A stretch of DNA of 64,000 nucleotides from Clostridia bacterium. Its GTDB lineage: Bacteria; Bacillota; Clostridia; Saccharofermentanales; DTU023. Shown here in pieces: positions 39,365 through 62,767 of the stretch. The notes below the pieces were generated by a model. That model did no database searches, had not been told where the DNA came from, and saw nothing but the letters and a program-made list of their open reading frames with translations. A program made the position numbers and the translations under genes. Location of the stretch: positions 247,150-311,149 of the forward strand of contig JAXGOR010000002.1 of assembly GCA_040767365.1 (NCBI GenBank), in the 5' to 3' direction. Positions within the stretch are counted from its first letter, which is position 1; every line of letters starts with the position of its first letter.

Positions 39365-39595
39365 TTATCGACGCACTGTGCGAATAATTGTTTGTGGCCG
39401 ATTAACCAGAAGCGGTGGCTGGTTTAGGTAACATATTTATTAACCAGAGGATCACATCTCTAGTTCCTAAGTGCTTATAGCAAACAATTGTCAGAATCAC
39501 GTATTCCCGCAATATGAATAAACGTGTTATTGTGTAAATCAGATATATATATATAGCCTATGAGTTTCCATATGTGATTGAGAAGGAGTAGTGCC

Positions 39596-41485
39596 GTGGA
39601 ATGGGTTTTTCCTTTGAACAACGGGGGAGAGATAAAGGGCCTCAGAGATACAGGAATCGAGACATTTAAAGGAGATCCTTTGCGATTCCTAGCCCGAGAA
39701 ATCTGTCAGAACTCACTCGATGCAGGGAAAGAAGGTCAAACGGTTCGAGTTGAGTTTGTCCCCTTTTTTGTTAAGCGGACAGATTTTCCGGGAATAGACT
39801 CTTTGTCGGATGCATTCAGATTAGCCCGTGATTTTTGGGAAATGCTAAAGATTAAACATACCACCCAATTTTTCGAGCAAGCAATCCTTGAATTGCAAAA
39901 AGATTCAATTCCATTTCTAAGAGTAAGCGATTTTAACACCACAGGTCTTAGTGGATCTGATGGAGAATTCAATACGCCTTGGCTGAATCTTACAAAATCA
40001 TCGGGGGTATCTGATAAGGCAGGCACGGCCGGAGGATCATTCGGGATTGGAAAGTATGCCCCCTATGCATGTTCAGCTTTCCAGACTGTATTCTACGGAA
40101 CTATTGATTACGAAAGCAAGGTAGCTTTCCAAGGGGTATCCAGAATAACAAGTTTCCGATTGAGAAATAGCCAAGATATAACCACAAACGTTGGTTATTG
40201 GGGCGACGAGGGCAATAAACCCGCCAAATCATATACATTACTTGACCCGAGATTTGAACGGTCTGCGGAAGATTTTGGGACGGATATTTTCATCACGGGA
40301 TTTAAGTATTTTGATCAACCCGATTGGAAAGAGAACATTCTTGGCTCCATCATAGACGGGTTTTTATTTGCGATTTTTAATAATAAATTGTCTGTTCGGA
40401 TAGAGGATATCGAAATTAATCGCGACACATTACCTAGCATACTGGACGATTACGGCACGTATAGCCAGCAACACGCAGCAAACTATTATGAGGTTCTAGT
40501 TTCTCCTGAAACAAAAAAGTTTTGCGTGGAAAATTTCAATAACCTAGGCGAACTTCGACTAGACTTAATGATACATCCTGAGATGCATAGAAAAGTTGCT
40601 ATGGTCAGGAAGACTGGCATGAAAATTATGGATCGTGGATATATTTCTGGAATTGTTCCTTTTGCAGGTGTTCTATTGATAGAAGGTGACGAAATTAATG
40701 AATACTTAAGAAATTTAGAGAATCCAAGCCATACGGCCTGGGAGCCAGAGCGGATGGAACCTATTTCGAAGAAAGGCCAGGCAGAAAGATATCTCAAAGG
40801 AATCAGGGATTTTATTGTTGAAAGTCTCGAAGAACTTAAGAAAAATGATCCAATTGAAGAAATTGATGCTGACGTCGGTGATTTTTTACCCGATGAGTAC
40901 TCAGATGATGAAACTCAAAAAAGTACAGAATCTGAAAATATCTCAGATAAGACTCAAGATATTAAGAAGCTGACAATCCATACTAGCAGGAAACTTGGTA
41001 GTAAACGAGATGAAGACGGAGTGGAGGGTCTGCCGGACGATGAAGGCCCCCTTGAAGCTGATGTGAATAGGCTGGGGGCCGGTCATAGGGATGGCAAGAG
41101 CCGCGCAGGGGGGCCAGGTGTAGGAGCGGATGAGGGAGAGGGTGAAGGATCTAACTTGGATATTGAAAAACGGAGTCTCAGAGCTGTTAGCCTAGCGAAA
41201 GTGAGATCTATTTGCCTTAACAAAGAAGAAGGACGATACCATTTATCTCTTATCCCCAACGTAACCGCGTCGTCTGGACAAGTCGAAATATTTGTATCTG
41301 CAGAAACTGATCGATATAAGGCTCCCATACGAGATATTCAGGTCATGAATCAACCAGATGCCAATTTTGAAGGTAATCGGATAGTCGATTTGCAGTTTAT
41401 AGAGGGTGAAGCCATTAGGATTCAATTACTCATAGATTATTTTGACTACGTAGCTATGGAGGTTCGAGCACATGGAAATACGTGA
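39596..41485 (+). CDS. Hsp90/sacsin-like GHKL ATPase-domain protein (operon gene A)
   Basis: N-box FLAREICQNSLDA, G1-like VSDFNTTGLSG, G2 box GGSFGIGKYAPYA (compare Hsp90 ELISNSSDA / GQFGVGFYS). Then comes an unassigned middle region, an acidic then Gly-rich linker, and a C-terminal domain of about 100 aa. GTG at 39596 lies 7 nt after AAGGAG. The alternative start is TTG at 39578. Confidence 0.7.
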   Translation: MEWVFPLNNGGEIKGLRDTGIETFKGDPLRFLAREICQNSLDAGKEGQTVRVEFVPFFVKRTDFPGIDSLSDAFRLARDFWEMLKIKHTTQFFEQAILELQKDSIPFLRVSDFNTTGLSGSDGEFNTPWLNLTKSSGVSDKAGTAGGSFGIGKYAPYACSAFQTVFYGTIDYESKVAFQGVSRITSFRLRNSQDITTNVGYWGDEGNKPAKSYTLLDPRFERSAEDFGTDIFITGFKYFDQPDWKENILGSIIDGFLFAIFNNKLSVRIEDIEINRDTLPSILDDYGTYSQQHAANYYEVLVSPETKKFCVENFNNLGELRLDLMIHPEMHRKVAMVRKTGMKIMDRGYISGIVPFAGVLLIEGDEINEYLRNLENPSHTAWEPERMEPISKKGQAERYLKGIRDFIVESLEELKKNDPIEEIDADVGDFLPDEYSDDETQKSTESENISDKTQDIKKLTIHTSRKLGSKRDEDGVEGLPDDEGPLEADVNRLGAGHRDGKSRAGGPGVGADEGEGEGSNLDIEKRSLRAVSLAKVRSICLNKEEGRYHLSLIPNVTASSGQVEIFVSAETDRYKAPIRDIQVMNQPDANFEGNRIVDLQFIEGEAIRIQLLIDYFDYVAMEVRAHGNT

Positions 41486-42365
41486 GAAACTGTATCCTTA
41501 TCCTGTCTTAGCTACATTTACAGATGATTATCGGGATAGTTATTTTGAAACTGTTTTCGATCTACAAAAAGACGGATACGATCTGTGTCTTCACATCTTA
41601 TCTGAACTAAAAAACGAAGAACTCCAAACCCTGCTACTAGAGAATAGAGTGAACTTTGTTTACCACATCGAATGTTCTCAAACAGGTTATAGAGTGGCAG
41701 TCAACACCAATCGCAACGTCTTTGAACATAGAATTATTGATAGCAAAGTTAGCGGAAGACTGCAAGTTTGCTCCTTTATCATTGCCTGCGAGGATTTATC
41801 AAACTATACCAATCAATTGCTACATGGAGACTATAGCGGTTTCACATTTGCTATCGACAGAGGGAATATAATGGCAGTCGGATCACAAAGCGATTTTGAG
41901 ATCGAAAAGACTTTAAGTGATCTGTCGTACGTGCCCTCCGTGATTGCCATTGTTAAGAATCCTGAAGTAGACGCCGAGGGCATGCTAGTGAGTATTGATC
42001 AAAATAAAATAGTAATCAGAATACCTGAAAACGATTTTTACAATTATCGAAGCCTTTCAAAAGAGGTAGGTGCAAAATCTATATTACGATCCCTCATTAT
42101 TGTGCCTGCACTAGCTTACGTGTTAACCGAAGTTGCTAAAAGAGATCCTTCAGAACGCTATATCTATAGTTCTTATTCTTGGTATTTGGCGATTAAGAAA
42201 AACCTGCGCACGATATTCGAATGCAATATAGAAAGTGAAGACTTCGCAGAGTTAGACATGTTACGTCTAGCGCAAAGGATTTTGAATTCTCCGCTTGGGA
42301 AAGCATTATCCACCTTGGCTCAAGATTATGGGATTTTTGTAGGAGATGGTGACGAATGGATTTAG
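41472..42365 (+). CDS. Hypothetical protein (operon gene B)
   Basis: 297-aa ORF. Its ATG overlaps the end of gene A by 14 nt, and GGAGG lies 9 nt upstream. No motif recognised. Confidence 0.6.
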   Translation: MEIREKLYPYPVLATFTDDYRDSYFETVFDLQKDGYDLCLHILSELKNEELQTLLLENRVNFVYHIECSQTGYRVAVNTNRNVFEHRIIDSKVSGRLQVCSFIIACEDLSNYTNQLLHGDYSGFTFAIDRGNIMAVGSQSDFEIEKTLSDLSYVPSVIAIVKNPEVDAEGMLVSIDQNKIVIRIPENDFYNYRSLSKEVGAKSILRSLIIVPALAYVLTEVAKRDPSERYIYSSYSWYLAIKKNLRTIFECNIESEDFAELDMLRLAQRILNSPLGKALSTLAQDYGIFVGDGDEWI

Positions 42366-43081
42366 TGATTATTAGTGAAGACAGTCTGCTTGATTTACGA
42401 AGCAATTTACCGAGCATACTGCACTATTTTACGGAATCAACTCCTCATTGGCTCAATGAGTATTTTGGCTTTTCGCCATTCCTGGAGACAAAGTATTCGG
42501 TTGAAGACTTCGCTCTGGATATGTCAGCGGATAGGCCATTTCATACAGAATTTGAGAACGTAAAGCGTGTGTATAACCGTCTGAATTTTCTGACCTGTTC
42601 GGAAGCCTCAGATGAGCGTTTATGGGCTGGGTTATGCCTTAAGTATTTTTGGAAATATGTCCAATATCGGTGGAATATTGTGAATCAATGCACACTTGAG
42701 AATGTCTTGCAGCATTATTTTTTTGGCTTTGGGGCTCGTCGCTCTCTGACACGAAATGCTTTGTCTAGACTTTGGTGGATTGGCCACCTGACTTATGACG
42801 ATGAACGGAAAAATCCCTATGCTTTAACTCAATTTGTGTGTGAAAATTCGAATTATATTATGCATATATTGGAACGGAACACATCAAACAATCCCGATAT
42901 TGTTAGGCCCTTCATATCAGCAATTATTGAAGCCCGTTCAGAAGGGTATTCGATCAACACAAATGTCGTAGCAACCTTGTCTCGATATCTCAATTTGTTG
43001 GGGGGAACTTACCTGCTTGATTGTCTCCCACAAGAGATAATTCAAAGAAAAGTAATCGATTACCTGCGGCTTATTTCATAA
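42356..43081 (+). CDS. Hypothetical protein (operon gene C)
   Basis: 241-aa ORF. Its ATG overlaps gene B by 10 nt, and AGGAG lies 10 nt upstream. Trp-rich segments ERLWAGLCLKYFWKYVQYRW and LSRLWWIGHL. No family confidently recognised. Confidence 0.6.
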   Translation: MDLVIISEDSLLDLRSNLPSILHYFTESTPHWLNEYFGFSPFLETKYSVEDFALDMSADRPFHTEFENVKRVYNRLNFLTCSEASDERLWAGLCLKYFWKYVQYRWNIVNQCTLENVLQHYFFGFGARRSLTRNALSRLWWIGHLTYDDERKNPYALTQFVCENSNYIMHILERNTSNNPDIVRPFISAIIEARSEGYSINTNVVATLSRYLNLLGGTYLLDCLPQEIIQRKVIDYLRLIS

Positions 43082-43094
43082 CTGTAGAAAAAGA

Positions 43095-45824
43095 TTGCAA
43101 TATATGTACAAAAATATTTCTGAACTACTAGACGACCCAAAATTTGAGAAGATCGTCCATTATTTAGGATCAAATAAAATTCTTTCATTGGATGACCTGA
43201 TTAATTTTGATGTAGAAGACTTATATTTCATCCCAGGAATAACTTTAGGATTGGTAGAGGAAACCCAAAATAGAATCAATGACTATTTAAAAGGTAAGAC
43301 TCGTATTGCAGACACAGAGATCAACCACAATTTGGAAAAACTAATTCAGACGGGGAAAAGGCGAGCATGCCATCCCACAGAGAACAAAAAAGTCTCAATT
43401 GTTGGGACAGATCCTCAGATAAAAGAAGAGTCAGATAAAAGCGAGGTATGTACAAATAACTATGTCAGAATTCCGATTGATGTTGCGTATGTAAATAGCA
43501 AAAAAGGCGCGTGGTTTGTAAAGTTCTGTTGTGACCGAGGGAAGGTTTTCATGGATCAACTCTCTGAGGAAGATTTTTCTGAACTTAATAGCCAGATAGG
43601 TATAGGCGTAAAGTTTAAGTTGCAGTTGGAAGAGATTTTTAATGAATATCAATCTTCGCCATCGTCTTTTAGTGAACGCTCATCTGAAATTGATTTATCC
43701 CTTTTCGCACATCGCCACTTTTCGACAAATACAAGTCGCTGGCTTAAGAGTGCAGGTATCCGAACCATCAAGGCCATGCGAGGATTTGATTTTGATTATC
43801 TGCTTGATCTTGGCCGAATGAATCGGACCATCTATCGAGAAATAACAGGTTTCCTACATCACTTGAAGGGGCAACCGATTACTAAAAAGAGTCGAGAAAT
43901 TGCTAAAAGTAGTAAGATATATTCTACGAACGATATTGCATCGGAGAACTTTCATATCCAACTCCGTGTTTTCACTCTCTTGTATCTTTTATCTGAGGCA
44001 GATTACCAGGCTTTAGAAGCACGAGGACTTCACATCGTAGGTGATTTGTGCGATCGGGTACTAGACTCATTTGAGCTTGCTGTCGTGGAACGAATTGTTG
44101 GCAAGATTGTTACACCGGTTCTTGAGCAGTACCTACATGCTTTCGAGAGCCTCCCAGATAACCACCGCTCGATCTTGATAAGTAGAGCGACCGGCGATAC
44201 GCTACAGGAGATTGGCGACCGCATCGGGCTTAGTCGAGAAAGAATTAGACAAATTTCAAATAAAGCAACAAAACGTTTGATTAATTGGGCGGTTCTTTTC
44301 GGTGGGTCATTGCTGGGCGAAATGCGGCGTTTTGTTTCTTATAACGAGCTTCTGGAAGCGTTTGATGAACAAGTACATGCCTCGATTATTTCTTTGATTT
44401 ATCGAGAATACACGACCATACAGTATTTAGATTTTCGAGATAAATTCGACTATTTCCCTCAGACCATTTCGGTGTGCGAGCAGTTTGAAATGATGGCACG
44501 CGATCTTATCGGTGATGGTGTAGATTTCTACGATCAAATTGATGTTATTGAAGATGAGTTGGATGTAAGGGGATTAGGGGAGCTAGATTTCGAAGATTTC
44601 ATGCATTATCTGATAAGTTGCGGATATCGTTTTTATGGTGACTTTGTGGCTCTCGACCAGAAGGCCTCAACCCTTATCTATTACGACGCAATCGATCGAT
44701 ATTTTTCCTTGGATATTAAACTTGACTCCAAGAAAGAAAATGAAGATATGAATAAACTGAGGAAAGAAGTTGAAATGAAGTACCCGGGATTCCGTCAACC
44801 TAAAGATAATCGCTCGTTGACTGCCATGATAACGAGAAATCCGCGAATAATTCTCTCTGGTCGTGGAACTTATCGCCCAATTAGCAAGATTGTATACAGT
44901 CGACCGCTACTCAACGAAATTCGGGAATATATACAAAACAGTACCCTGCCCTCGCTATACTATTTTGAATTGTTCGAATCGTTCAAAGGCCGCTTGCTGG
45001 CGGAAACAAGTATCGACAATTATCATCTACTTCATGGGATGCTTAAATACTTGTTTAAAGAATCTTTTTCTTTTAGGCGCGATAGAATCGCTAAATTGGG
45101 AGAAAAACACCTTACCGTTGACGATAGGATTGTCCAGCTTATTCTAAATCTCGGCCGACCAATTACTAAAACGGAAATCAGAAGAACAATTCCAGGCATT
45201 TCTGATTTTGTAATTGCTTTTGCAATAGAAAGAGTTCCGGACTTGATTCAATGGGATAACAACCGGTTTAATCACGTCGACAACGTGCGTTTAGATGATT
45301 ATGCACAAAAAGTATTTTCCGAATGCCTGAAATCGTTGACCAGCGATTCAGGATACACGAGTGCCCAATTATTTTATAAAAAAACATATGATTTATACCC
45401 GCAAGTCATTGAGAACAATAATCTTGAAAACTCAGACAACCTTTTTTATGTTGCATCCTACTATTTAGATAAAGAGTTTCGTTTTAATAGAAAACATATC
45501 GCGTCGTTGGATTTTCCGGTGGAGGAACTTACTGTTGCTAACATAGTTCGCCATTTCTTAGGTGATAAGGATTCTTTCTCTTATGAGGAGTTGCTTGAAT
45601 TGGCGCGTGGGTATGGCTGGTCAACAGCTTCTCTCTACAATACTATTTCTTCACTGAAATCTTACTACGTTAGAGTGGCGGAGGATGAATACATTAAGAG
45701 AGATCTTCTCTGTATATCCCAATCGGATCAGATTGCCATCAAAACGTTACTTGAAAATTTGACGCGACCATCGGGGTACTTTGCCCTCTTTAGTATTTTC
45801 GACTACCGGATGTTTCTGATATAG
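43095..45824 (+). CDS. Large DNA-binding protein with alpha-CTD-like HhH repeats and sigma-70 region-4-like HTH (operon gene D)
   Basis: 909 aa. HhH modules lie at about residues 19-66, 143-185, 205-256 (STNTSRWLKSAGIRTIKAMRGFDFDYLLDLGRMNRTIYREITGFL) and 292-345. A sigma-r4-like HTH lies at residues 352-397 (LPDNHRSILISRATGDTLQEIGDRIGLSRERIRQISNKATKRL). The remaining roughly 500 aa are unassigned. Start is TTG at 43095 or ATG at 43104. Confidence 0.65.
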   Translation: MQYMYKNISELLDDPKFEKIVHYLGSNKILSLDDLINFDVEDLYFIPGITLGLVEETQNRINDYLKGKTRIADTEINHNLEKLIQTGKRRACHPTENKKVSIVGTDPQIKEESDKSEVCTNNYVRIPIDVAYVNSKKGAWFVKFCCDRGKVFMDQLSEEDFSELNSQIGIGVKFKLQLEEIFNEYQSSPSSFSERSSEIDLSLFAHRHFSTNTSRWLKSAGIRTIKAMRGFDFDYLLDLGRMNRTIYREITGFLHHLKGQPITKKSREIAKSSKIYSTNDIASENFHIQLRVFTLLYLLSEADYQALEARGLHIVGDLCDRVLDSFELAVVERIVGKIVTPVLEQYLHAFESLPDNHRSILISRATGDTLQEIGDRIGLSRERIRQISNKATKRLINWAVLFGGSLLGEMRRFVSYNELLEAFDEQVHASIISLIYREYTTIQYLDFRDKFDYFPQTISVCEQFEMMARDLIGDGVDFYDQIDVIEDELDVRGLGELDFEDFMHYLISCGYRFYGDFVALDQKASTLIYYDAIDRYFSLDIKLDSKKENEDMNKLRKEVEMKYPGFRQPKDNRSLTAMITRNPRIILSGRGTYRPISKIVYSRPLLNEIREYIQNSTLPSLYYFELFESFKGRLLAETSIDNYHLLHGMLKYLFKESFSFRRDRIAKLGEKHLTVDDRIVQLILNLGRPITKTEIRRTIPGISDFVIAFAIERVPDLIQWDNNRFNHVDNVRLDDYAQKVFSECLKSLTSDSGYTSAQLFYKKTYDLYPQVIENNNLENSDNLFYVASYYLDKEFRFNRKHIASLDFPVEELTVANIVRHFLGDKDSFSYEELLELARGYGWSTASLYNTISSLKSYYVRVAEDEYIKRDLLCISQSDQIAIKTLLENLTRPSGYFALFSIFDYRMFLI

Positions 45825-46132
45825 GCTTTGATTGGAATGCGCACCTTCTGGCACACATAATTAAAGAGTACGACGTTAGCCACAGATTACTCGAGCCAAT
45901 GAACTCAAATCGTGGCCCTCAGAGGGGTGTTATTGTCTCACAAGTCCATGATTGTAAAACGCACGATGATCTAGTGTTTAGATATCTTAAACAAAATAAT
46001 ATTAAAGTGATCACGAGAAAAGATCTTCAAAAATTACTGGAAAGTGCGGGTATTATCGAAGGAGCCCTTGCATTTGACATTGATAGTTCCCCGCATTGGA
46101 CAATAAAGGGTGACCGTCTTTTTGTCGGATAA
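45794..46132 (+). other. Open frame continuing gene D in the -1 frame (probable C-terminal extension separated by a frameshift)
   Basis: This frame has no stop from 45794 to the TAA at 46130-46132 and overlaps the last 28 nt of gene D. The translation reads sensibly (..LPDVSDIGFDWNAHLLAHIIKEYDVSHRLLEPMNSNRGPQRGVIVSQ...). The ORF track lists only 45899-46132. Confidence 0.45.
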
Positions 46133-46265
46133 CCACAAGAACAGCTTCATTACATATATGGGATAATTTTTGGATTACGCATCATCCTAAGGGTCAAACC
46201 AGTCGTCAGCAATTGGGTAATTCGTACAAGTTCTGATCGTCAAAAAGATTAATATTGTACTGAAA

Positions 46266-47837
46266 TTATTCTAACTCAGCATTATGCATATCTTGTAATT
46301 TAACCTGCCTGCCACACGAAAAAAGCTCTCGTATCTTGTCGTGCGAATAGGGTTTTAGCCTGTGCAAGTCAACAAGTTCTATCATCCTAGAAACACTTAT
46401 GCCTGAACCATCAAGGTTTGTTGCTCTAACGATAGAATTCAATTGTTTGTCAAAAGATGCCGAAAAACCACCCGCAATATATAGGAAAAAACTTAACGGC
46501 GCTAATGAGTCACTGTATTCACTAAAACCACCAATGTAATTATGGACCATCCTATTGTAATGGTCATTGCTAATCGAATATGATCTGTAAGCCTTATTAT
46601 CGATAATTGCCTGATAATTTGAATCTGAGGATAAGATAAGAACGTCCGGTGTTTTACCAAGGGGACCAACATGGGTGGCCTGGAATCCGAAAATTTCTTG
46701 GAATAGTTCAACGGTCGCTTTCTCAAAATTTGTAGCCTGATCAAAGCCTTTAAAAGCCATATCAAAATAATTTGCTAGGAAACCTCCAATAGCCCCTTGC
46801 GGATAAAATCTGTACAAAGTGTCCAAGACAATCTCACTGTCAAGACCGGTTCGTTCTGAAATATATTCAGCGAGGTTAGCGCTAATTTTTACAATCGGCG
46901 TTGCAAGAGCTTTCTCAAGAAAGGCTCTTCTAATTTGTTGTTCGATAATCATTTGGCCAGTGATAGTTCTCGATCCCTCGAGATTCCGTGTGTCTTTACG
47001 ATGATTAGGATCAACTCCAAATTTTCGTTGAAAATATTCGTGGCTTTCTGGCCTGTCTATCAAAGGTGAAGGGGATGTCAAGATCTTTGTGACCTCATCG
47101 AACCGGTCTTCAATTATCCTTATGGTTTTTGATTCGCGTTCGATGAGCTGCGTATATTCAAGCCAGTTGACCAGTGTATTGGCAACATCAAATAATCTTT
47201 CAAATGGGTATTCTTGATTAACATTTGCTCGCGAGGGTTTATATTTCTCAAAAAAATCCGCCGCCAAACAATTATCACCAAATTCTCTAAATTCTAGAAC
47301 CCGGTTAACAACGTGCTCGAAACACTCATCATCTTCATTTTCTGCTTCTGTGATGATGATTTTGGCAATCTCTTCCTCGGTCAGGACACGAATTCGGCTG
47401 TCCGATAGTAGGCGTAACAAAAAGAGGAAAGGACGAATGCGAAATCTGTCTGAAACTTTAACACCTCTTCTTATTGAGAAAGCAGAAGGGAACTGATACT
47501 TGAGTATTTGATTCTTTAGCACAGTGACTGGATTATCACCATTAATAATTGCTTCTCCAGCCAAAGTGAGTTGCACACGATTTGTCGTTTCTTGTGTAAA
47601 GATCAAACCGAGACTCAGTAGCCACGCGGCGTAAGTGCGAGCGCCACCACCTCCTTGATCACGGCGGATGCCATGTCGTTTAATTTCGTCACGTTCGAGA
47701 GTTTCTTCGAGTAATAGATGTGTATTTCGCTGACCTTGCCATTCCGCATCGAGAGAAACTTCAACGAAGGTAGCTAAAACAGAAGGGATGCTGTTCAGTT
47801 TTCTCTTTGGTCTCGTGACCCACCAATAATTGATCAT
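46266..47837 (-). CDS. Type IIS restriction endonuclease, AlwI family with FokI-like cleavage domain
   Basis: N-terminus WWVTRPKRKL, and ILKYQFPSAF / IRPFLFLLRLL, as in N.BstNBI/AlwI-family enzymes. The C-terminal TPDVLILSSDSNYQAIIDNKAYRSYSISNDHYNRMVHNYI closely resembles the FokI catalytic segment (..IVDTKAYSGGYNL..EMQRYV). It starts 10 nt after the methyltransferase stop. Confidence 0.65.
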   Translation of the reverse strand: MINYWWVTRPKRKLNSIPSVLATFVEVSLDAEWQGQRNTHLLLEETLERDEIKRHGIRRDQGGGGARTYAAWLLSLGLIFTQETTNRVQLTLAGEAIINGDNPVTVLKNQILKYQFPSAFSIRRGVKVSDRFRIRPFLFLLRLLSDSRIRVLTEEEIAKIIITEAENEDDECFEHVVNRVLEFREFGDNCLAADFFEKYKPSRANVNQEYPFERLFDVANTLVNWLEYTQLIERESKTIRIIEDRFDEVTKILTSPSPLIDRPESHEYFQRKFGVDPNHRKDTRNLEGSRTITGQMIIEQQIRRAFLEKALATPIVKISANLAEYISERTGLDSEIVLDTLYRFYPQGAIGGFLANYFDMAFKGFDQATNFEKATVELFQEIFGFQATHVGPLGKTPDVLILSSDSNYQAIIDNKAYRSYSISNDHYNRMVHNYIGGFSEYSDSLAPLSFFLYIAGGFSASFDKQLNSIVRATNLDGSGISVSRMIELVDLHRLKPYSHDKIRELFSCGRQVKLQDMHNAELE

Positions 47838-47847
47838 AATTTACTTC

Positions 47848-48918
47848 TTACCAAACCATATTACACTCGATGCAAGGGTATGTGAGATTTGCAAAAGTAT
47901 TTAAGATGGACTCAAAAATAATTTGTGCTCCCGTGCAGGGCACCGCCATCCCAATTTGTCGTCGAACTTGTTCCTTTGTTCCCTGGAAAAAGAAATCATC
48001 TGGAAAAGTCTGTAACCTGGCTCGCTCGCGGTTTGTTAGTGCACGATGTTCCTTGTAATGATAGATGTGCGTACCACCTCCTCCGGACCCAGTTACAGTG
48101 TATGCGGGCTTGTCTGGGTCTAGCCTCTTATATATTTGACTGATTTTGGCGCCCTTAACATTTAGCTGTAATTCGGGTGGAAGATCCGCAGTGAAGGCAT
48201 TTTCTCCAGGTTTGATGTGTTTCAATCTTTCGACAACAATTGATGACTGATTTGTAAATTCATGATTCAAGGCGTCGGGAGAAATGGGGGGATTTTCAAG
48301 CGCATTTCGGCAAGTGTTATCAATGCTCAAGTATGGTTCTGTTGAAGGCGGAAAAAAGTGCATAGGTAGATCTTCTCTAATCCCCACGATTATAATCCTA
48401 TGGCGTGCTTGCGGAACTCCGTATTGCTCAAACTTATATAGATGAGGATATATCCGATAACCTGCTTGGATGAAGTGTTCGAAAATTATTGCCAATGCCC
48501 CGCCTTTGTTTGCGCTCCTTAATCCGCCAACATTTTCTGCTAGGAACCACAGCGGTTGATGAGATTTCAAGACCTTGACGCCGTACGAATACAACGGGCC
48601 ATAGTCACCGTCAATCCCTCTTTGTTCGCCAACCACCGAGAAGTCATTGCAGGGGAAACCAAATGAAAGTGCATCAATCGCGGGCAAAGAAAAGGTATCC
48701 AGTTCCCTAACATCTTCTTGAATAACACTTTCCGGAACGCCCGGGCATATATTGAATCTAAAAGTTTCACAGGCTGCCGGATCAATGTCGGTAGCCCAAA
48801 TGTGCTTGATTCTGTGTTGACCGTCGAGCGAACGTGCCTGCATACCACCGTATGCTAGTCCTCCAGGCCCACAAAACAACTCGCCCATTCGATAAATAGT
48901 ATCCGTCTCGGTTGCCAA
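47848..48918 (-). CDS. DNA (cytosine-5)-methyltransferase
   Basis: Motif I ELFCGPGGL, motif IV GFPCNDFS, motif VI LAENVGGL, motif VIII QARHRIIIVG, motif X RALTNRERARLQTFPDDF. TTG start, 7 nt after GGAG. Confidence 0.9.
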   Translation of the reverse strand: MATETDTIYRMGELFCGPGGLAYGGMQARSLDGQHRIKHIWATDIDPAACETFRFNICPGVPESVIQEDVRELDTFSLPAIDALSFGFPCNDFSVVGEQRGIDGDYGPLYSYGVKVLKSHQPLWFLAENVGGLRSANKGGALAIIFEHFIQAGYRIYPHLYKFEQYGVPQARHRIIIVGIREDLPMHFFPPSTEPYLSIDNTCRNALENPPISPDALNHEFTNQSSIVVERLKHIKPGENAFTADLPPELQLNVKGAKISQIYKRLDPDKPAYTVTGSGGGGTHIYHYKEHRALTNRERARLQTFPDDFFFQGTKEQVRRQIGMAVPCTGAQIIFESILNTFANLTYPCIECNMVW

Positions 48919-51296: not shown

Positions 51297-52351
51297 ATGA
51301 AACGTATTGCACTTTTATTAGTCATCGCACTGCTTACTACAGTGCTGTTCTCCCTGCAGCCGCCGGTGGAGGAACCTACGCAACCAAGTAAGGAAGACTT
51401 AGCCCCAGAACCTTCTGTCACCGAAACTGAGGGTGATACCCAGAGCCAGTTGATTATTCTAATATGAAGGTCGTAATCCTGTTGCCCGGTGTGATTACAG
51501 ATGGCGGCTGGTGCTCCATTGGCCACAGCATAGTCGAAAATTTGTCGGACAAGTATGGTATGACTGGTTCTTATGTCGAAAACATTGCCGTTTCTGACAT
51601 GGAAGAATATTTGAGGATGTACGCTGAAGATAATTATGATTTGATTATCGTTCACGGGTCACAATATATAGATAACATGATCAAGGCCGCTAAAGAATTT
51701 CCAGAAATCAACTTTTGCGTTTCATACGGAGATGAGGATGTCTCGGAAGGACTCAATAATGTTGGTTGCGCAGGGATGAAAAACATGGGAATTATGATAG
51801 GCGCAATTATGGGAGTGTTGACCGATGATAACCACGTGTGTTTCCTTGCGGGAGAAGAAAATCCGGTCTTCACTGGGATGGTTAATACGATCGAAGAAGG
51901 TGTTCGCCTTACAAACAAAGAATGCAAAGTCGACCTTGCCTATATCGGCACCATCACTGACCAAAGTATGGCCAAAGAAATGGCAATAAGCTACATCGAT
52001 GCGGGTGTAGATGTCATTTCCTCTGCCGCTAATGCTGCACAAGTCGGGGTACTCGAAGCTGCTGAAGAAAAAGGAATATTGTGCCTTGGGACCAACACGG
52101 ATCAGTATGAACTCGCGCCAGACGCAGTAGTGCTATCAGTAATGCGTAATTATCCTGCTATCTATGAGAATGTAGTAATTGACATTGCGAATGGTACATT
52201 TGCCGGTGGTCTCCTCGATTATGGACTTGCTCAAAATGGGACCCTCGTGTCCGAGTGGCATGGATGGGATGAAAAATTGCCTACTGAAAAAGTCGACGAA
52301 GTCAATCGTGTAGTCGCGGGTTTGTTAGCCGGAGAGTTTGGTGATTATTAG
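51297..52351 (+). pseudogene. BMP-family (PnrA-like) ABC substrate-binding protein, split into a signal-peptide ORF and a mature-domain ORF
   Basis: 51297-51467 encodes MKRIALLLVIALLTTVLFS... plus a linker. 51464-52351 encodes KVVILLPGVITDGGW..., the typical start of a mature BMP domain. The two frames overlap at ATGA, so a single -1 shift within 51438-51464 would fuse them. Confidence 0.6.
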
Positions 52352-52918
52352 GCAACCCGTGCGTAGTTTTGTGATATTTCTATATTTGTAGTGATACATG
52401 AGACTCCCTCGCGCATTGAAAGATGTCGAGATCAAGGAGAGTTCCCCAGCAGCGAGACTCCATTACGAAACAAAAGTGTTCAAATGGAGGATCGCTGTTG
52501 GGGAGAAACATCCACATCAGTGTTGAAGTTTTTGCTACACATCGAAGTATCTCCTTCTGGTCAAAGGTGTAAGATTATCGCTTCTAACCTCTGAATGGTT
52601 TTTGTGCCTCCGAGACGAGATGCCTGTTGCTAATAAATTCGCGGTGGATGGTCTTGAAAAATGAAAATTGTCGAGATAGTTGCATTTGATAACTCGCATT
52701 CTTGGCGTAGATAAAGGCTTGCATTCTTGAAATGTACCGACGCGTTATCATCGAGAATCGACTGCTTAGGTGTTTTTTAATGTGTTCGAAAAGTTGCGCA
52801 TTGATGGCGAGAATACTGATTGCAGTCCAGCGGACCGAAGTGAACCTAGTCAAGCTCCATCAAATGGCTAAACGATAATAAGTATGAGAATAAATGGACC
52901 GTGAAGGAATTCAATTAA

Positions 52919-53998
52919 ATGAAATCAAATGTTAAGAAATTCTGTAACCGTCTTGATTTGTGGCAAGTATCGGTATCAGTATTTTCAATTTGTGTATCGA
53001 TGCTAGTTGGTATCGGCCTAATTGCTTTGATGGGTATAGACCCAGTCAAGGCCCTCAACTCCCTATGGGAAGGCTCTTTTAGCAGTATAAAGGCTGTTGC
53101 CGAAACTACCGTAAAAATGACTCCCCTCCTATTTACTGGGATGAGTTATGCTCTTGCCAACAGATGTGGATTGACCAATCTTGGTATGGAGGGCCAGCTT
53201 TATATGGGGGCGTTATTCGCTTCCATTGTTGGCATCTATGTCAGCGGCTTGCCTAGCATTTTGCATGTACTACTCACAATTTTGGCCGGTATGTTGGGGG
53301 GCGGATTGTGGGGATTAATTGCAGGTACCCTGAAAGTATTCTTTCGAGCTAGTGAAATCATTACTACCGTTATGTTGAACACAATCGCTATAAACTTAGT
53401 TGAGTTTATGGTGAATGGCCCAATTATTGAGCCACCCGGCATCAACAACCAAACGAGACCCGTACTTGAAAGCGCGCGGCTAAATAGAATAGTGCCAGAT
53501 ATGCGAGCACATTGGGGATTTCTAGTCGCGATAATGGTTCTGATCTTGTTTTGGTTTTTCCTATTTAAAAGTAAAAAAGGATTTGAGGTTCGAGTGTCAG
53601 GTCAGAATACATTCGCAGCGACTTATTCTGGCATTAATACGAGAAGAAACATTTTGTTGATTATGTTTCTGGCAGGTGGCGTCGCTGGACTCGCTGGATG
53701 TATTGAAATAATTGGCGTTCAGACTAGGTTGGTTCCTGTAATATCACCTGGGTATGGGTTTGATGGAATTGCGGTGTCCCTCATCGGAAACAACGCTCCT
53801 TGGGGCATATTCTTCGGCGCCTTATTGTTCGGTGCTTTCCGTGCTGGAGGTAATCGTATGCAAATGCGTACACAAACTCCAATCACTATCATAAGTGTGA
53901 TCCAGGCATTGGTGATCATTGCAGTTATTAGCGGGAATATTCTAACGGACAAAATTAAAGCACGTAAGATGGTTTATTCACAGTCTGCAACGGAATAA
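52919..53998 (+). CDS. ABC transporter permease (BMP/nucleoside-type, first subunit)
   Basis: 359 aa, polytopic, and in the same operon as the BMP binding protein and the double-cassette ATPase. Confidence 0.8.
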   Translation: MKSNVKKFCNRLDLWQVSVSVFSICVSMLVGIGLIALMGIDPVKALNSLWEGSFSSIKAVAETTVKMTPLLFTGMSYALANRCGLTNLGMEGQLYMGALFASIVGIYVSGLPSILHVLLTILAGMLGGGLWGLIAGTLKVFFRASEIITTVMLNTIAINLVEFMVNGPIIEPPGINNQTRPVLESARLNRIVPDMRAHWGFLVAIMVLILFWFFLFKSKKGFEVRVSGQNTFAATYSGINTRRNILLIMFLAGGVAGLAGCIEIIGVQTRLVPVISPGYGFDGIAVSLIGNNAPWGIFFGALLFGAFRAGGNRMQMRTQTPITIISVIQALVIIAVISGNILTDKIKARKMVYSQSATE

Positions 53999-54011
53999 AG
54001 GAGGAAAATAT

Positions 54012-54935
54012 ATGAATGTTTTGCAAATAATTGCCGGTCATATTTCGTCTGACATACGGATGGCGACTCCGATTCTATTTGCTGGCTTGGGTTTATTGCT
54101 GATTAATCATAGCGGGCTTCTTTGCATTGGTGCCGAGGGTATCATGCTCATGGCCTCCCTTACAGCAGTTATCGGATCATTTTACACTGGGAGTGTTGCT
54201 ATCGGATTTGCCTGTGCCTTGTTAGCAGGGATTGTGATGGGATTACTATTCGCCTTTCTTACTGTCACTGTAAAGGCAAATCAAATCGTAACCGGCGTCG
54301 CAATTAATGTTCTTGGATCAGGCCTTTCTGCGACGATAAGCAGACTATTGTTTGATGTAGGTAAACCAACAAAAATTCCAGTATTCCAAAATATTTCGAT
54401 TCCTGTCTTGTCTCGTATACCATTCTTCGGGAAAGCTTTATTCAGCCATATGTTGCCCGTGTATTTGGCATTTGTATTAGTCCCCATACTGACTTTTTAT
54501 TTGTTCCGTACTCAGAGAGGTCTGAACTTACGGGCCGTTGGGGAAGATCCTAAAGTCTCAGATACAATGGGAATTAATATTTTCCGTACACAGTATCTTG
54601 CGACGATTGCCGGCGGTTTGCTAATTGCCGCTGGTGGTGCCTTCCTTTCAACAGGTTTAGTATCTTCATTCTCTGAAGAAATGGTGTCTGGTAGAGGTTT
54701 CATCGCTTTAGCCGCGGTAATCTTTGGCCGTTATAAACCAGCAGGTGTTTTGCTGGCGTCCGTTGTATTTGTAACAGGTAACGTCCTCTCAAACGTTTTG
54801 CAGGTAGCTGGAACTCCCATTCCGTACACATTGCTAACTATGACGCCGTATCTATTAACAATTATTGCTCTTACCATCTTCGCAAAAGGAGCGGTTGCCC
54901 CCGCTTCACTGGGTAGGATATATAGAAGGGGATAA
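54012..54935 (+). CDS. ABC transporter permease (BMP/nucleoside-type, second subunit)
   Basis: 307 aa, polytopic, starting 13 nt after the first permease. Confidence 0.8.
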   Translation: MNVLQIIAGHISSDIRMATPILFAGLGLLLINHSGLLCIGAEGIMLMASLTAVIGSFYTGSVAIGFACALLAGIVMGLLFAFLTVTVKANQIVTGVAINVLGSGLSATISRLLFDVGKPTKIPVFQNISIPVLSRIPFFGKALFSHMLPVYLAFVLVPILTFYLFRTQRGLNLRAVGEDPKVSDTMGINIFRTQYLATIAGGLLIAAGGAFLSTGLVSSFSEEMVSGRGFIALAAVIFGRYKPAGVLLASVVFVTGNVLSNVLQVAGTPIPYTLLTMTPYLLTIIALTIFAKGAVAPASLGRIYRRG

Positions 54936-54942
54936 GTGGTTT

Positions 54943-56472
54943 ATGGACAAAATCATTGAAATGAAACACATCTCGAAATACTTCCCTGGAGTCAAAGCTT
55001 GTGATGATATAAATCTTGATATAGAGCGAGGAGAAGTTCATGCTCTTTTAGGTGAAAATGGGGCGGGTAAAACTACGCTTATGAATATTCTGTGTGGTTT
55101 GTACAAGCAGACAGATGGAGAGATATGGATCGATGGTGAACCGGTCCGATTCACATCCGCTAAAGACGCTATGGCTATTGGCATTGGAATGGTACATCAA
55201 CATTTTATGCTCATTCCTTCTCTAACCGTAGCTGAAAATTGTCTTATTGGAAATAAATCTAGCGCCCTTAAGATTGATATCAAGCGTACCTCAAATGAAA
55301 TTGAATCACTTGCTGATCAATACAATATGCCTATTGATCCCAATGTAATCGTATCTTCTTTATCAGTTGGTGAAATGCAAAGGGTGGAGATAATTAAAAC
55401 CCTATACCGAGGTGCGAATATTCTAATACTTGATGAGCCAACTGCTGTATTAACTCCACAAGAAACTCAGCAACTGTTCAGTATGATACGAAACTTAACA
55501 GCAAAAGGATACACCGTACTGTTCATTAGTCACAAACTTAATGAAGTTAAAGAAATCTCTGATCGCGTCACAGTTTTGCGCCACGGTAAAATAGTTGGCA
55601 CGTTTAAAACTAGCGAGAGCCAAATAGCTGATCTTGCGCGCCATATGATAGGCCGCCCAATTGCTGAATTTGATAGAAAGCGATCACCTGTATCAGAGAA
55701 TATTACACTCAAGGTGCGAGGGCTCACGTATAGAGATAAAGGTAGTGAGAAGGCGCTTAAGGACATAGACTTAGATATTCGTTCTGGAGAAATATTGGGG
55801 ATCGCTGGAGTAGATGGGAATGGCCAGACCGAATTGATCGAATGTCTGACAGGAATGGCTAAGGCTGTTGATGGCATTGCGCAATTCAATCAATTGGACC
55901 TATTGCAATGCAAAACTCGTGAGATAATGCAGGGCGGTGTCTCGCATATTCCACAAGACAGACAAAGGACCGGCCTTGTTTTATCTATGCCATTAACTGA
56001 GAATTTTGTGTTGCAGGATTATTATTCTGAAAAATTTGGGAAATTCGGCATTATGAACTGGCGGACTGTCGACCGCTACAGTGACGAGTTGATTGAAGAG
56101 TTTGATATCAGAACGCCTGATAGAAATGAATTAGCTCAAAATTTGTCTGGCGGTAACCAACAAAAGGTTGTCGTCGCTCGTGAGATTAATCGTGAGCATA
56201 GCCTTCTTATCGCAATGCACCCAACTCGAGGGCTGGATATCGGCGCGATCGAATTTATCCACAATCAACTTATTAAAGAACGTGAGAACGGTAGAGCAAT
56301 CCTGCTAATTTCTACCGAGTTAGAAGAATTAATGAAATTATCAGATCGGATTTCAATAATGTTTGAAGGAAAAATACTAGGGACTGTTGATCCCGATGAC
56401 TCAAGTATTGAGAAAATTGGCCTTATGCTTGGGGGCGCTTCCGAGGTTCTTGAAGAACCGAGCATCTATTAA
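54943..56472 (+). CDS. ABC transporter ATP-binding protein with two ATPase cassettes
   Basis: First cassette: Walker [10 protein letters not shown], signature LSVGEMQRV, Walker B LILDEPT. Second cassette: [19 protein letters not shown] prefer ATG at 54943 (after GAAGGGGA) over 54865. Confidence 0.9.
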
Positions 56473-56530
56473 ATTTATGGTAATAGTCATAATCAATTGA
56501 TAGAGAATACCTTTATTCCAGGAGGAAACT

Positions 56531-57718
56531 GTGAAAACGTTGATCAAAAATATACTTCCCCAAAGAGAAAAAGAAAGACATGACATCTTAATCGAAGGCA
56601 GTTACATTGTTGAGGCAAGACCAGCTGGATCAATAGCTGAAATAAACAACAATATTATTGATGGCACAGATTATGTGCTATTTCCTGCCTTCGTCGATGC
56701 CCATTCACATTCAGACAAAACAATGCTTGGCCTTGAATGGTTTAACAATACGCTTAGCGATAGAATCGCTGAACGTATTTCGTTTGAGCGTACTAACAGA
56801 AAAAATTTGGGTATCGATTCTTATGTACAAGCAAAAAGGGCAATTTCATTAGCAATTGCCAACGGTACCTTATTCATGCGTAGTCACGTGGACATTGATC
56901 CATTAGTGAAGCTGTCAGGTGTTGAAGGGATTATGCAAGCGAGACAAGAGTTTGCGGATATCTTTGATTTGCAACTGGTAGCTTTCCCACAGTCCGGTAT
57001 AGTGCGAGATATTGAAACGTATGAACTTATTGAAAGATCCTTGCTAATGGGTGTCGATCTTATGGGCGGCATTGACCCTGCCGTCGTTGAGCGCGATCCG
57101 AAAGGTTCCGTCGATACCATATTTGAGCTGGCTCACAAGCATGGCGTGTCTTTGGATGTACATCTTCACGAACGTGGTGAGCTGGGCGCTTTTGATTTAG
57201 AGTTAATGCTCGAAAAAGTCGAAGCTTACGAAATGCAGGGAATGCTGACGATCAGCCATGGCCTTTGTTTAGATCATCGAAGCGATTATTACGAAGATTT
57301 GTCAGATCGAGTGGCTAAGTGCAATGTCAGCATTATCACAGGTGGACAAGCATACATCCCGTCAATACCTATGGTAAAACCACTTATCGAAAAAGGAATT
57401 TTGGTAGCAGGGGGTAATGACAGTCTGCGCGATGTTTGGAGCCCTTATGGGACAGGCGATATGTTAGAAAGAGCACAATTTATTGCCATGAGGAATTTGT
57501 TCAGGCGCGACGATGATTTGAATCTCGCCGCTGAACTTGTTACGTACAATGGAGCCAAATTATTAGGTATTGAAAATTATGGGACAGATGTTGGCGATAA
57601 AGCGAACCTTACGCTAGTTCGCGGGCGGAATGTTGCAGAGTGTGTCGCAACTTCACCAACAGATCGTATCGTGATAAGAAATGGCAAAGTGATTGCTACC
57701 AATGGCGAGTTAAATTGA
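56531..57718 (+). CDS. Amidohydrolase-superfamily enzyme (cytosine deaminase / AtzC-like)
   Basis: Metal-binding FVDAHSHSD (HxH), later HVD and DVHLHE motifs, and a C-terminal GND. GTG start 6 nt after AGGAGG. Confidence 0.7.
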   Translation: MKTLIKNILPQREKERHDILIEGSYIVEARPAGSIAEINNNIIDGTDYVLFPAFVDAHSHSDKTMLGLEWFNNTLSDRIAERISFERTNRKNLGIDSYVQAKRAISLAIANGTLFMRSHVDIDPLVKLSGVEGIMQARQEFADIFDLQLVAFPQSGIVRDIETYELIERSLLMGVDLMGGIDPAVVERDPKGSVDTIFELAHKHGVSLDVHLHERGELGAFDLELMLEKVEAYEMQGMLTISHGLCLDHRSDYYEDLSDRVAKCNVSIITGGQAYIPSIPMVKPLIEKGILVAGGNDSLRDVWSPYGTGDMLERAQFIAMRNLFRRDDDLNLAAELVTYNGAKLLGIENYGTDVGDKANLTLVRGRNVAECVATSPTDRIVIRNGKVIATNGELN

Positions 57719-62002: not shown

Positions 62003-62767
62003 CTAGGTTTTTACACTTTCCTCTTTGAAGATTGTTTCCTGATGCTTCATTCTGAAGCTATCCCCATCCATTTTTACAATCTCTGACCGGTGTAGCAGCC
62101 GATCAAAAATAGCTGTTGTTGTGGCAGGATCATCCGCCAGTGCGCTCCACAGTTCAGGCGACCGATTGGAGGTCAAGATAATGGCTGTATTTTCATAGAG
62201 ATCGTGGATTAAATGAAAGAACATGGTTTGTTCGCGGGCGCTGGTTCCAAAATACATCAAGTCATCGATGATGACGACATCTGCTTTTCTGACCCTGCTG
62301 ATCTTAATCTGGGATTTTCGCATGAACTCTTCTGTCTTCAAGGCATCGAGGAGGCTGTTCATGGTGGTGTAGTAGACCCTCAATCCCTTCTTGATGCCTA
62401 CCAGTCCAAGACCCAAGGCCAGATGGGTTTTGCCCACACCTGGCGGCCCTAAGAGGATGAGATTGTAGGCATCGTGTACCCAATGAAATTCTGACAATTC
62501 TTTCAGCTGCCTGTCTGAAATACCGGTCAACTCACCCAACTTGAAATCTGCCAGCGATTTGATGTAGGGGAACTGAGCCCAGGTCAGACGGCGTCTCAAT
62601 CGTCTATCTTCCAGGTCGTCCACTTCCGCCTTCAGGATGTACTCCAGAAGCTCAGCATGCGTCCAGGAAGCCTTCTGCGCTTGCCTAAGGATGTCGGCCA
62701 ACTGGTCTCTGGTCGACAGAAGTTTTAGTTGACCACACTGTTCCTGCATCGTTTTTATGGTATCCAT
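62003..62767 (-). CDS. istB: IS21-family helper ATPase IstB
   Basis: Walker A GPPGVGKTHLALGLG and Walker B VVIIDDL. 254 aa, immediately after istA. Confidence 0.9.
   Translation of the reverse strand: MDTIKTMQEQCGQLKLLSTRDQLADILRQAQKASWTHAELLEYILKAEVDDLEDRRLRRRLTWAQFPYIKSLADFKLGELTGISDRQLKELSEFHWVHDAYNLILLGPPGVGKTHLALGLGLVGIKKGLRVYYTTMNSLLDALKTEEFMRKSQIKISRVRKADVVIIDDLMYFGTSAREQTMFFHLIHDLYENTAIILTSNRSPELWSALADDPATTTAIFDRLLHRSEIVKMDGDSFRMKHQETIFKEESVKT

Follow-up and report, generated by a model that had tools for sequence, protein, structure and literature searches.

A defence-operon protein combining alpha-CTD-like modules, a sigma region-4 domain and a winged-helix array: a candidate DNA-binding subunit of modification-linked bacterial defence systems

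How foreign DNA is found and judged in multi-gene defence systems such as BREX is still without a clear account. The question is raised again by a 64,000-nucleotide stretch of a Clostridia bacterium genome (assembly GCA_040767365.1, contig JAXGOR010000002.1, positions 247,150 to 311,149; hereafter the window, whose own numbering is used throughout), in which the fourth gene of a defence-like operon, here called gene D, encodes a protein related to the promoter-recognition domains of RNA polymerase (RNAP). In ~1010 residues, D combines four degenerate copies of the C-terminal domain of the RNAP alpha subunit (alpha-CTD), one helix-turn-helix (HTH) of sigma-70 region 4 (sigma-4) and seven to eight winged helices, an assembly that most likely represents a DNA-binding subunit. 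Although the first two domain types are genuinely related to RpoA-CTD and sigma-4, D itself belongs with neither the alpha subunits nor the sigma factors. Our tentative reading, to which we give a probability of about 0.45, is that D serves as a DNA-binding targeting or sensor subunit of a defence system. What we observed are the identities of the domains, the membership of D in the operon, the distribution of the family among partner systems and the conservation of DNA-contacting residues; from these we infer DNA binding, its specificity and the recruitment of the products of the neighbouring genes A, B and C. An earlier description made from the DNA letters and their open reading frames (the sequence-only reading) had presented D as a mimic of promoter-recognition surfaces, acting either as a sensor of promoter DNA or as a decoy for phage factors that signals to a GHKL ATPase.

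For at least three kinds of modification-linked systems, the family of D provides a specific candidate for the step of DNA recognition, one that lends itself readily to testing. It reuses both promoter-recognition domains of RNAP, with the DNA-contacting residues preserved in the family. In the following, homologous proteins and loci are designated by our working numbers (P and L, respectively), and the coordinates of all features are collected in Table 1.

The sigma region-4 domain

The sigma-4 domain of D was detected directly. The Pfam model Sigma70_r4 (PF04545) matched residues 349-395 (44139-44279) with E = 8.5e-11 and 41.6 bits against a gathering threshold of 24.1, and the PDB sequence matches of D were all to sigma domain 4. 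NCBIfam matches were to region 4 only and lay far under their cut-offs. In a structural model of residues 1-410, the predicted local distance difference test score (pLDDT) was 96-98 over residues 341-400, and Foldseek superposed the modelled domain on the sigma-4 of SigD (3vfz_A; template modelling (TM) score 0.78, root-mean-square deviation 2.5 Å), with 4g6d_A also retrieved. The sigma-70 region 4.2 HTH proposed in the sequence-only reading is borne out by these results.

The strongest conservation in D falls on the residues predicted to contact DNA. R381, E382, R383, I384, R385 and Q386 are invariant in the family alignment A1, and the motif [ST]RER[IV]RQ is kept in 144 of the 161 family members. 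We take these six positions to align with the residues by which primary sigma factors make contact with the -35 element in sigma-4/-35 structures. As judged from the alignments, the putative DNA-contact residues of sigma-4 are nearly invariant across the family. Few positions are conserved in region 4.1, the N-terminal half of the domain, and the similarity thus centres on the HTH and its recognition helix.

We also considered whether D could be a sigma factor. Pfam gave no match to Sigma70_r2 or Sigma70_r3 in D, and NCBIfam matches were confined to region 4. Because it has neither sigma region 2 nor region 3, D is not a sigma factor. A search of genome contigs for the sigma-4 motif retrieved ordinary sigma-like genes.

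The alpha-CTD-like modules

In the sequence-only reading, at least three and probably four segments of D were found to fit the pattern of the alpha-CTD, a fold of two helix-hairpin-helix motifs, (HhH)2. Such a pattern match alone is not proof of an alpha-CTD, since no segment of the window protein reaches the Pfam model RNA_pol_A_CTD (PF03118): neither the whole protein nor its excised segments gave a match at E ≤ 10, and the sole Pfam match of the excised segments was a sub-threshold one to HHH_5 at residues 24-50. Likewise, a hidden Markov model seeded with three RpoA CTDs missed the window protein and found clear alpha-CTDs in 121 of the 217 proteins collected.

Profile comparison supported two of the modules by themselves and the other two with intermediate sequences or in part. 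Each module was compared by hhalign with an alpha-CTD alignment that excluded close relatives, using either three degenerate sequences only or these sequences plus the intermediates P0189 and P0201. Modules 1, 2, 3 and 4 gave probabilities of 94%, 7%, 95% and 65%, respectively, in the former case and 95%, 97%, 98.5% and 91% in the latter, and a sliding-window control along the whole protein stayed at ≤22% outside the four modules. When the profile of module 1 was run against all PDB sequences, the alpha CTD of Thermus RNAP came out on top (1doq_A, E = 2e-4); the three-sequence profile of module 3 reached only E = 1.8 against PDB.

The homologues of D bridge the distance to the Pfam model. PF03118 was matched by 7 of the 14 homologues searched at first and by 23 of the 40 searched later, with a best E of 7.7e-36. 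For instance, P0189, whose sequence agrees at 100% identity with the D gene of a locus having the same A-B-C-D operon (L028), carries a match at residues 186-239 (E = 4.4e-17) that aligns with residues ~205-256 of the window protein, in module 3. P0201 carries two such stretches (E = 7.3e-33), aligned with residues ~141-192 and ~205-256 of the window protein. All four modules were modelled with a pLDDT of ~86-97. In modules 1-3 the helices follow the order of the alpha-CTD (short, long, two short, long), and module 4 has one helix missing. Foldseek with the five-domain N-terminal model, run against PDB and a viral library, returned sigma factors only and no alpha-CTD superposition. For modules 1 and 3, homology to the alpha-CTD is supported by profile comparison and by the (HhH)2 order of helices; for the putative modules 2 and 4, the identity is supported with intermediate sequences or in part. 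The assignment made in the sequence-only reading holds at the level of profiles and homologues, and not at the level of a direct match to PF03118.

The DNA-binding '265 determinant' of the alpha-CTD, scored as R265, N268, G296, K298 and S299 over 143 alpha-CTD modules of the family, is well represented among them: these residues are kept in 138, 109, 140, 78 and 97 modules, respectively. The four modules of the window protein read K/H, W/K, N/R and A/Q at positions 265/268, and at positions 296, 298 and 299 only module 2 retains any of the residues (G296 and K298), so that none of the four carries the determinant. Because these residues were lost, the lineage of the window protein, P0002 and P0213 has kept the fold without the canonical residues for DNA contact, and conservation of the degenerate modules among the three proteins persists. 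All 142 significant alpha-CTD modules in the family lie N-terminal of sigma-4, and this order, alpha-CTD then sigma-4, is that of the UP element and the -35 element in a promoter.

The winged-helix array and the C-terminal tail

The larger part of D, ~60% of the protein, is an array of winged helices (WH) that had gone unseen in the sequence-only reading. AlphaFold modelled residues 396-909 with a pLDDT of 92 and a predicted TM score of 0.80 as a chain of about seven helix-helix-helix-hairpin units. Foldseek searches with the array retrieved tandem winged-helix proteins, namely UFL1 (E = 1.4e-5), WH1-4 of SelB, Dcc1, ESCRT-II, a Mga-type regulator and AlkX/YcaQ. The seven excised units and the tail gave no Pfam match, including HARE-HTH (PF05066), at E ≤ 5, and D was rejected as a HARE-HTH protein for want of a PF05066 match. 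The C-terminal ~140 residues are conserved across the family; in the window they are lost to a frameshift (see below), and the modelled fragment includes only their first ~37 residues. This tail is probably a further winged helix.

Charge is distributed unevenly along D. Module 3, the linker that follows it, sigma-4 and WH3 are basic, and modules 1, 2 and 4 and most of the winged helices are acidic. WH2 (residues 457-520, 44463-44654) has a net charge of about -13.5 and an isoelectric point of 4.05, values not typical of DNA-binding domains; they would agree with a role in protein binding or in DNA mimicry.

The family of D and its partner systems

A family profile search over 1.84 billion representatives, with clusters defined at 50% identity, yielded 1,527 clusters at E ≤ 1e-30. 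No model in Pfam, NCBIfam or PADLOC covers this family beyond the two N-terminal domain types. In the literature, we found no description of the D family, PDC-M33, DUF6339 or a four-gene PDC-M33, and our searches brought up no homologue family of D with a known, unrelated function.

Neighbourhoods were compared at ~40 loci and fell into four kinds. The first is the A-B-C-D operon with its gene order conserved (L001-4, L028-31, L033, L036, L047 and the window). The second is BREX type 4 (phosphorothioation), with D, phosphoadenosine phosphosulphate (PAPS) reductase, BrxC, PglZ and BrxL in L005, L008, L022, L043 and L054; the first genes of this order are seen on the shorter contigs L042 and L046, and L023 and L024 are variants. 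In the third (L009/10 and L051), D is followed by a superfamily 2 (SF2) helicase, a small protein, a DndD-like AAA_23 ATPase, a dnd-associated protein and an N6 methylase, and these helicase/DndD-like loci resemble CxC/Pbe-type systems (PMC10853773). The fourth, in which D homologues stand alone, is considered with the possible functions below. D homologues are the first gene in the BREX type-4 and helicase-type loci and the last in PDC-M33. In a rough neighbour-joining tree built from the winged-helix region, sequences grouped largely by partner system, as would be expected more of an integral subunit than of a regulator that is exchanged freely.

PDC-M33 thus exists in a four-gene form, and it is accompanied by cytosine-5 methylases. 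A C5 methyltransferase or a type II restriction-modification (R-M) pair almost always adjoins A-B-C(-D), as in L001-L004, L028-L030, L033, L036, the plasmid of L025 and the window. The position and orientation of these genes vary among PDC-M33 loci; in L033, for instance, an orthologous C5 methyltransferase and FokI-like endonuclease lie upstream and co-directional. This suggests a functional coupling of PDC-M33 and the C5 methylase instead of chance clustering in defence islands. A search of plasmids with D by tblastn gave no match. On a Ligilactobacillus salivarius plasmid (NZ_CP123987, L026, 7980-13484), a PDC-M33-like locus has an apparently split gene A, with a group II intron reverse transcriptase (ltrA) between A and B/DUF6339.

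Reading frame and genomic surroundings of gene D

The open reading frame (ORF) called mechanically in the window spans 43095-45824 and encodes 909 residues from a TTG start, with an ATG three codons further in. The sequence-only reading had placed the end of the gene at 46132, which is out of frame with this ORF. Similarity to P0002, the closest homologue of D (1012 residues, 69% identity), carries on in the frame that ends at 46132. The window reads ATG TTT CTG ATA TAG where ATG TTT CCT GAT ATA GGC is expected, and the contigs of four of four public metagenome runs carry an extra C after 45815, being otherwise identical over 45600-46200. An intact D of 1009 residues, P0218, is present in the protein database within the 90% cluster of the window protein. 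Because the homology to P0002 continues past 45824 and both the four assemblies and P0218 keep the frame intact, 43095-46132 is the real gene span, as had been proposed. An assembly error or a mutation specific to this strain would account for the deletion in the window. The four assemblies are independent of each other and come from samples of bioreactors and other engineered environments.

Gene D starts 13 nucleotides past the end of gene C and is the fourth gene of A-B-C-D. The three genes directly upstream match the PADLOC models PDC-M33A, B and C, which confirms the sequence-only claim of a defence-like operon; D itself matched no PADLOC model save MzaA at chance level. Gene A gave no Pfam or PDB sequence match, and its assignment as a GHKL-type ATPase therefore follows from its motifs only. 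We propose that D is co-transcribed with A-B-C, and its translation is probably coupled to that of C. In a promoter and terminator scan around the operon, promoter-like sites were not in excess.

Table 1. Coordinates of gene D, its domains and the neighbouring genes in the window (residue numbers are those of D)
Feature	Position	Strand	Evidence and remarks
Gene A, PDC-M33A	39578-41485	+	PADLOC E 1.5e-202; GHKL-type motifs E..QN..DA, DFNTTGLSG, GSFGIG
Gene B, PDC-M33B	41472-42365	+	PADLOC E 3.3e-93
Gene C, PDC-M33C / DUF6339	42356-43081	+	PADLOC E 3.2e-95; Pfam DUF6339 E 2.6e-55
Gene D	43095-46132	+	~1012 aa from TTG at 43095, or 1009 aa from ATG at 43104; window copy frameshifted
Alpha-CTD-like (HhH)2 module 1, aa ~8-70	43116-43304	+	Acidic; PDB profile search, hhalign 94%, pLDDT ~95
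Alpha-CTD-like module 2, aa ~125-196	43467-43682	+	Family-wide 'F..YC..GK' N-terminal module; P0201 alignment, hhalign, pLDDT ~93
Alpha-CTD-like module 3, aa ~198-260	43686-43874	+	Basic; hhalign 95%; PF03118 at aligned P0189/L028 position
Partial alpha-CTD-like module 4, aa ~285-345	43947-44129	+	First hairpin kept, second degenerate; hhalign 65-91%
Sigma-70 region 4 HTH, aa ~346-408	44130-44318	+	Recognition helix SRERIRQISNK; Pfam, PDB sequence matches, Foldseek
About seven tandem winged-helix domains, aa ~407-871	44313-45707	+	AlphaFold, Foldseek
C-terminal ~140 aa	45711-46132	+	Helix and conserved 'P.IG.EW..FLLESII' tail; alignments A1 and A3, P0218 sequence
Site of 1-nt deletion	45815-45816	+	Window TTTCTG, other assemblies TTTCCTG
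FokI-cleavage/AlwI-family endonuclease	46266-47837	-	Pfam; convergent to D; type IIS-like R-M pair
C5 cytosine methyltransferase	47848-48918	-	Pfam; partner in type IIS-like R-M pair

Gene D lies in a low-GC island: from ~0.61, the GC content drops at ~34 kb to ~0.40-0.45 and remains low for the rest of the window. This boundary yielded no identifiable integrase, and the window contains no tRNA gene. The low-GC part also carries, on the plus strand, a Bmp/PnrA-type ABC transporter (a binding protein, two permeases and a double ATPase) followed by an amidohydrolase (51464-57718). Near the end of the window, on the minus strand, an IS21-family pair consists of an IstB-like ATPase (62003-62767) and a transposase with rve and Mu-transposase C-terminal domains (62767-63945).

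Possible functions of D

We envisage D as a long nucleic-acid-binding subunit of the beads-on-a-string type that may have been added on to several DNA-modification-linked defence systems, namely PDC-M33 beside a C5-methylase R-M pair, BREX type 4 and helicase/DndD-like (Pbe-like) systems. DNA would be held by the sigma-4 helix, predicted to read a -35-like TTGACA sequence, and by the basic parts of the protein (module 3 and WH3/WH4), and the acidic modules would serve as docking sites for the ATPase and for the partner proteins of modification or restriction. In this way, D could target or license the ATPase and the modification/restriction machinery on DNA. Several observations weigh against this proposal. 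D is acidic overall, with a net charge of -17, as are most of its modules, and much of it may therefore bind protein instead of DNA; moreover, the DNA-binding 265 determinant has been lost in all four alpha-CTD-like modules of the window protein. PDC-M33 is listed in PADLOC as a candidate defence system only. Lone D homologues stand among housekeeping genes in L006/7, L034-37 and L039, and A-B-C also exists without D, for instance on a Priestia megaterium plasmid (NZ_CP117691, L025), so that D is not essential to the A-B-C module.

It is tempting to speculate further that the cassette of alpha-CTD followed by sigma-4 recognizes, on its own, the upstream half of a promoter (UP and -35), or RNAP, and that it places or triggers the immune machinery at promoters of incoming DNA in PDC-M33, BREX type 4, Pbe-like and some Dnd/BREX-like loci. 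We regard this more specific version as rather unlikely; if true, a promoter-upstream reader would represent a sensing principle not described for bacterial immunity. The near-invariance of the predicted DNA-contact residues of sigma-4 mildly favours the promoter-DNA sensor among the two options of the sequence-only reading.

The intact DNA-contact residues of the HTH would also suit a role in transcriptional control of the neighbouring defence or modification genes, with D as a large counterpart of R-M controllers, DndB and BrxR-type proteins whose sigma-4 acts on the promoter of its own operon. That D heads the BREX type-4 and helicase-type loci, and that it accompanies several unrelated systems and is sometimes found alone, as portable regulators are, agree with such a role. 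We consider it unlikely, however, as D, with ~1000 residues and at least 12 domains, greatly exceeds the known regulators of this type in size and is the last gene in PDC-M33, where its translation is probably coupled. Furthermore, its recognition helix is nearly the same across systems with different promoters, its tree follows the partner system, and the region around the operon shows no excess of promoter-like sites. Contacts with RNAP itself offer another explanation. Sigma-4 is the domain by which sigma factors bind the beta-flap, and the domain of D is a close structural match to it; D might dock its sigma-4 on the flap tip and its alpha-CTD-like modules on RNAP or activators, thereby tethering the defence machinery to initiating or transcribing polymerase or competing with sigma, and its acidic modules do suggest protein contacts. 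Yet the strongest conservation lies on the DNA-contacting residues and not on an identified flap-binding surface, and D is without sigma-2 and sigma-3, which makes docking improbable in our view.

The decoy put forward in the sequence-only reading, in which RNAP-like surfaces draw phage factors of the Alt/ModA or AsiA kind and so trigger the GHKL ATPase, found no positive evidence beyond the domain composition, and we judge it very improbable. Arg265 of alpha is the target of Alt/ModA. It is kept in alpha-CTD modules family-wide, but K, W, N and A occupy its position in the four modules of the window protein, which contradicts the alpha-CTD half of the proposal here. The sigma-4 likeness is centred on the HTH and recognition helix, with region 4.1 poorly conserved, 60% of D is a winged-helix array, and the family also occurs in modification-based systems that have no GHKL ATPase. 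The supposed link to this ATPase is not specific, as D homologues are found in BREX type-4, helicase/DndD-like and lone contexts and A-B-C is found without D. Finally, the frameshift at 45815 and the loss of the alpha-CTD determinants might indicate that the window copy of D is a decaying or non-functional accessory. We give this hardly any credence, given the intact frame in four independent assemblies and the conservation of the degenerate modules, which fold confidently in the model, among the window protein, P0002 and P0213. A DNA-binding targeting or sensor subunit remains the reading that we prefer.

Comparison with known systems

D differs from the RNAP proteins to which its N-terminal part is related. 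With the RNAP alpha CTD (PF03118), it shares a homologous (HhH)2 fold that reaches E = 7.7e-36 in the best family member and that keeps R265, N268, G296, K298 and S299 in the family. Unlike the alpha subunit, D has no alpha N-terminal domain, and one to four copies of the CTD fold are placed in a non-RNAP protein of ~1000 residues. The sigma-4 domain (PF04545) is closest to that of RpoD/RpoS/RpoH-type factors, and its recognition helix, SRERIRQI..K, is nearly identical to those of primary sigma factors; in contrast to sigma factors, D has alpha-CTD-like modules on the N-terminal side of this domain and a winged-helix array on its C-terminal side.

Among defence proteins, MzaA of the MZA anti-phage system (NCBIfam NF041931) resembles D in that it is large, bears a sigma-4 and comes from a defence operon; this operon also includes a MutL-type GHKL ATPase. 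D was rejected as an MzaA: the match scored 17.7 bits against a cut-off of 800 and was restricted to residues 365-395, ~30 residues of sigma-4.

An analogy by domain type is provided by proteins whose DNA-binding-type domains have been read as target-recognition or scanning units. These include the winged-HTH arrays of DndG, SspB, the FokI DNA-binding domain and BrxA/DUF4007, and PglW of BREX type 2, which carries an alpha-CTD-like domain and a winged HTH (PMC10853773, PMC12839542). D has many more DNA-binding-type domains than PglW, BrxA/DUF4007, SspB, DndG or FokI and is without their kinase, nuclease and STAND parts, and the likeness noted here is one of domain type. Sigma-like HTH or alpha-CTD-like domains have also been noted in BrxL and PglW (PMC12839542) and in a DndH variant (PMC10853773).

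A second family found in this study (P0024, P0026 and P0036) joins the alpha-CTD and sigma-4 cassette to HARE-HTH domains, with PF05066 matches in P0026 and P0036. P0026 (L056, 1643-4477) heads a locus with a PglX-type methyltransferase, DUF4007, BrxC and PglZ, and P0036 (L055, 10001-12796) is part of a dnd cluster, where it is flanked by a helicase/DndD-like module on one side and by dndB, dndE-D-C-B and dndA on the other. The N-terminal cassette and the kind of neighbourhood are common to the two families, whereas the C-terminal regions of the second have no detectable homology to the winged-helix array of D. The borrowing of sigma-like and alpha-CTD-like domains by defence proteins has been reported already; the family of D and the four-gene form of PDC-M33 appear, from the literature searched, to be new members of this repertoire.

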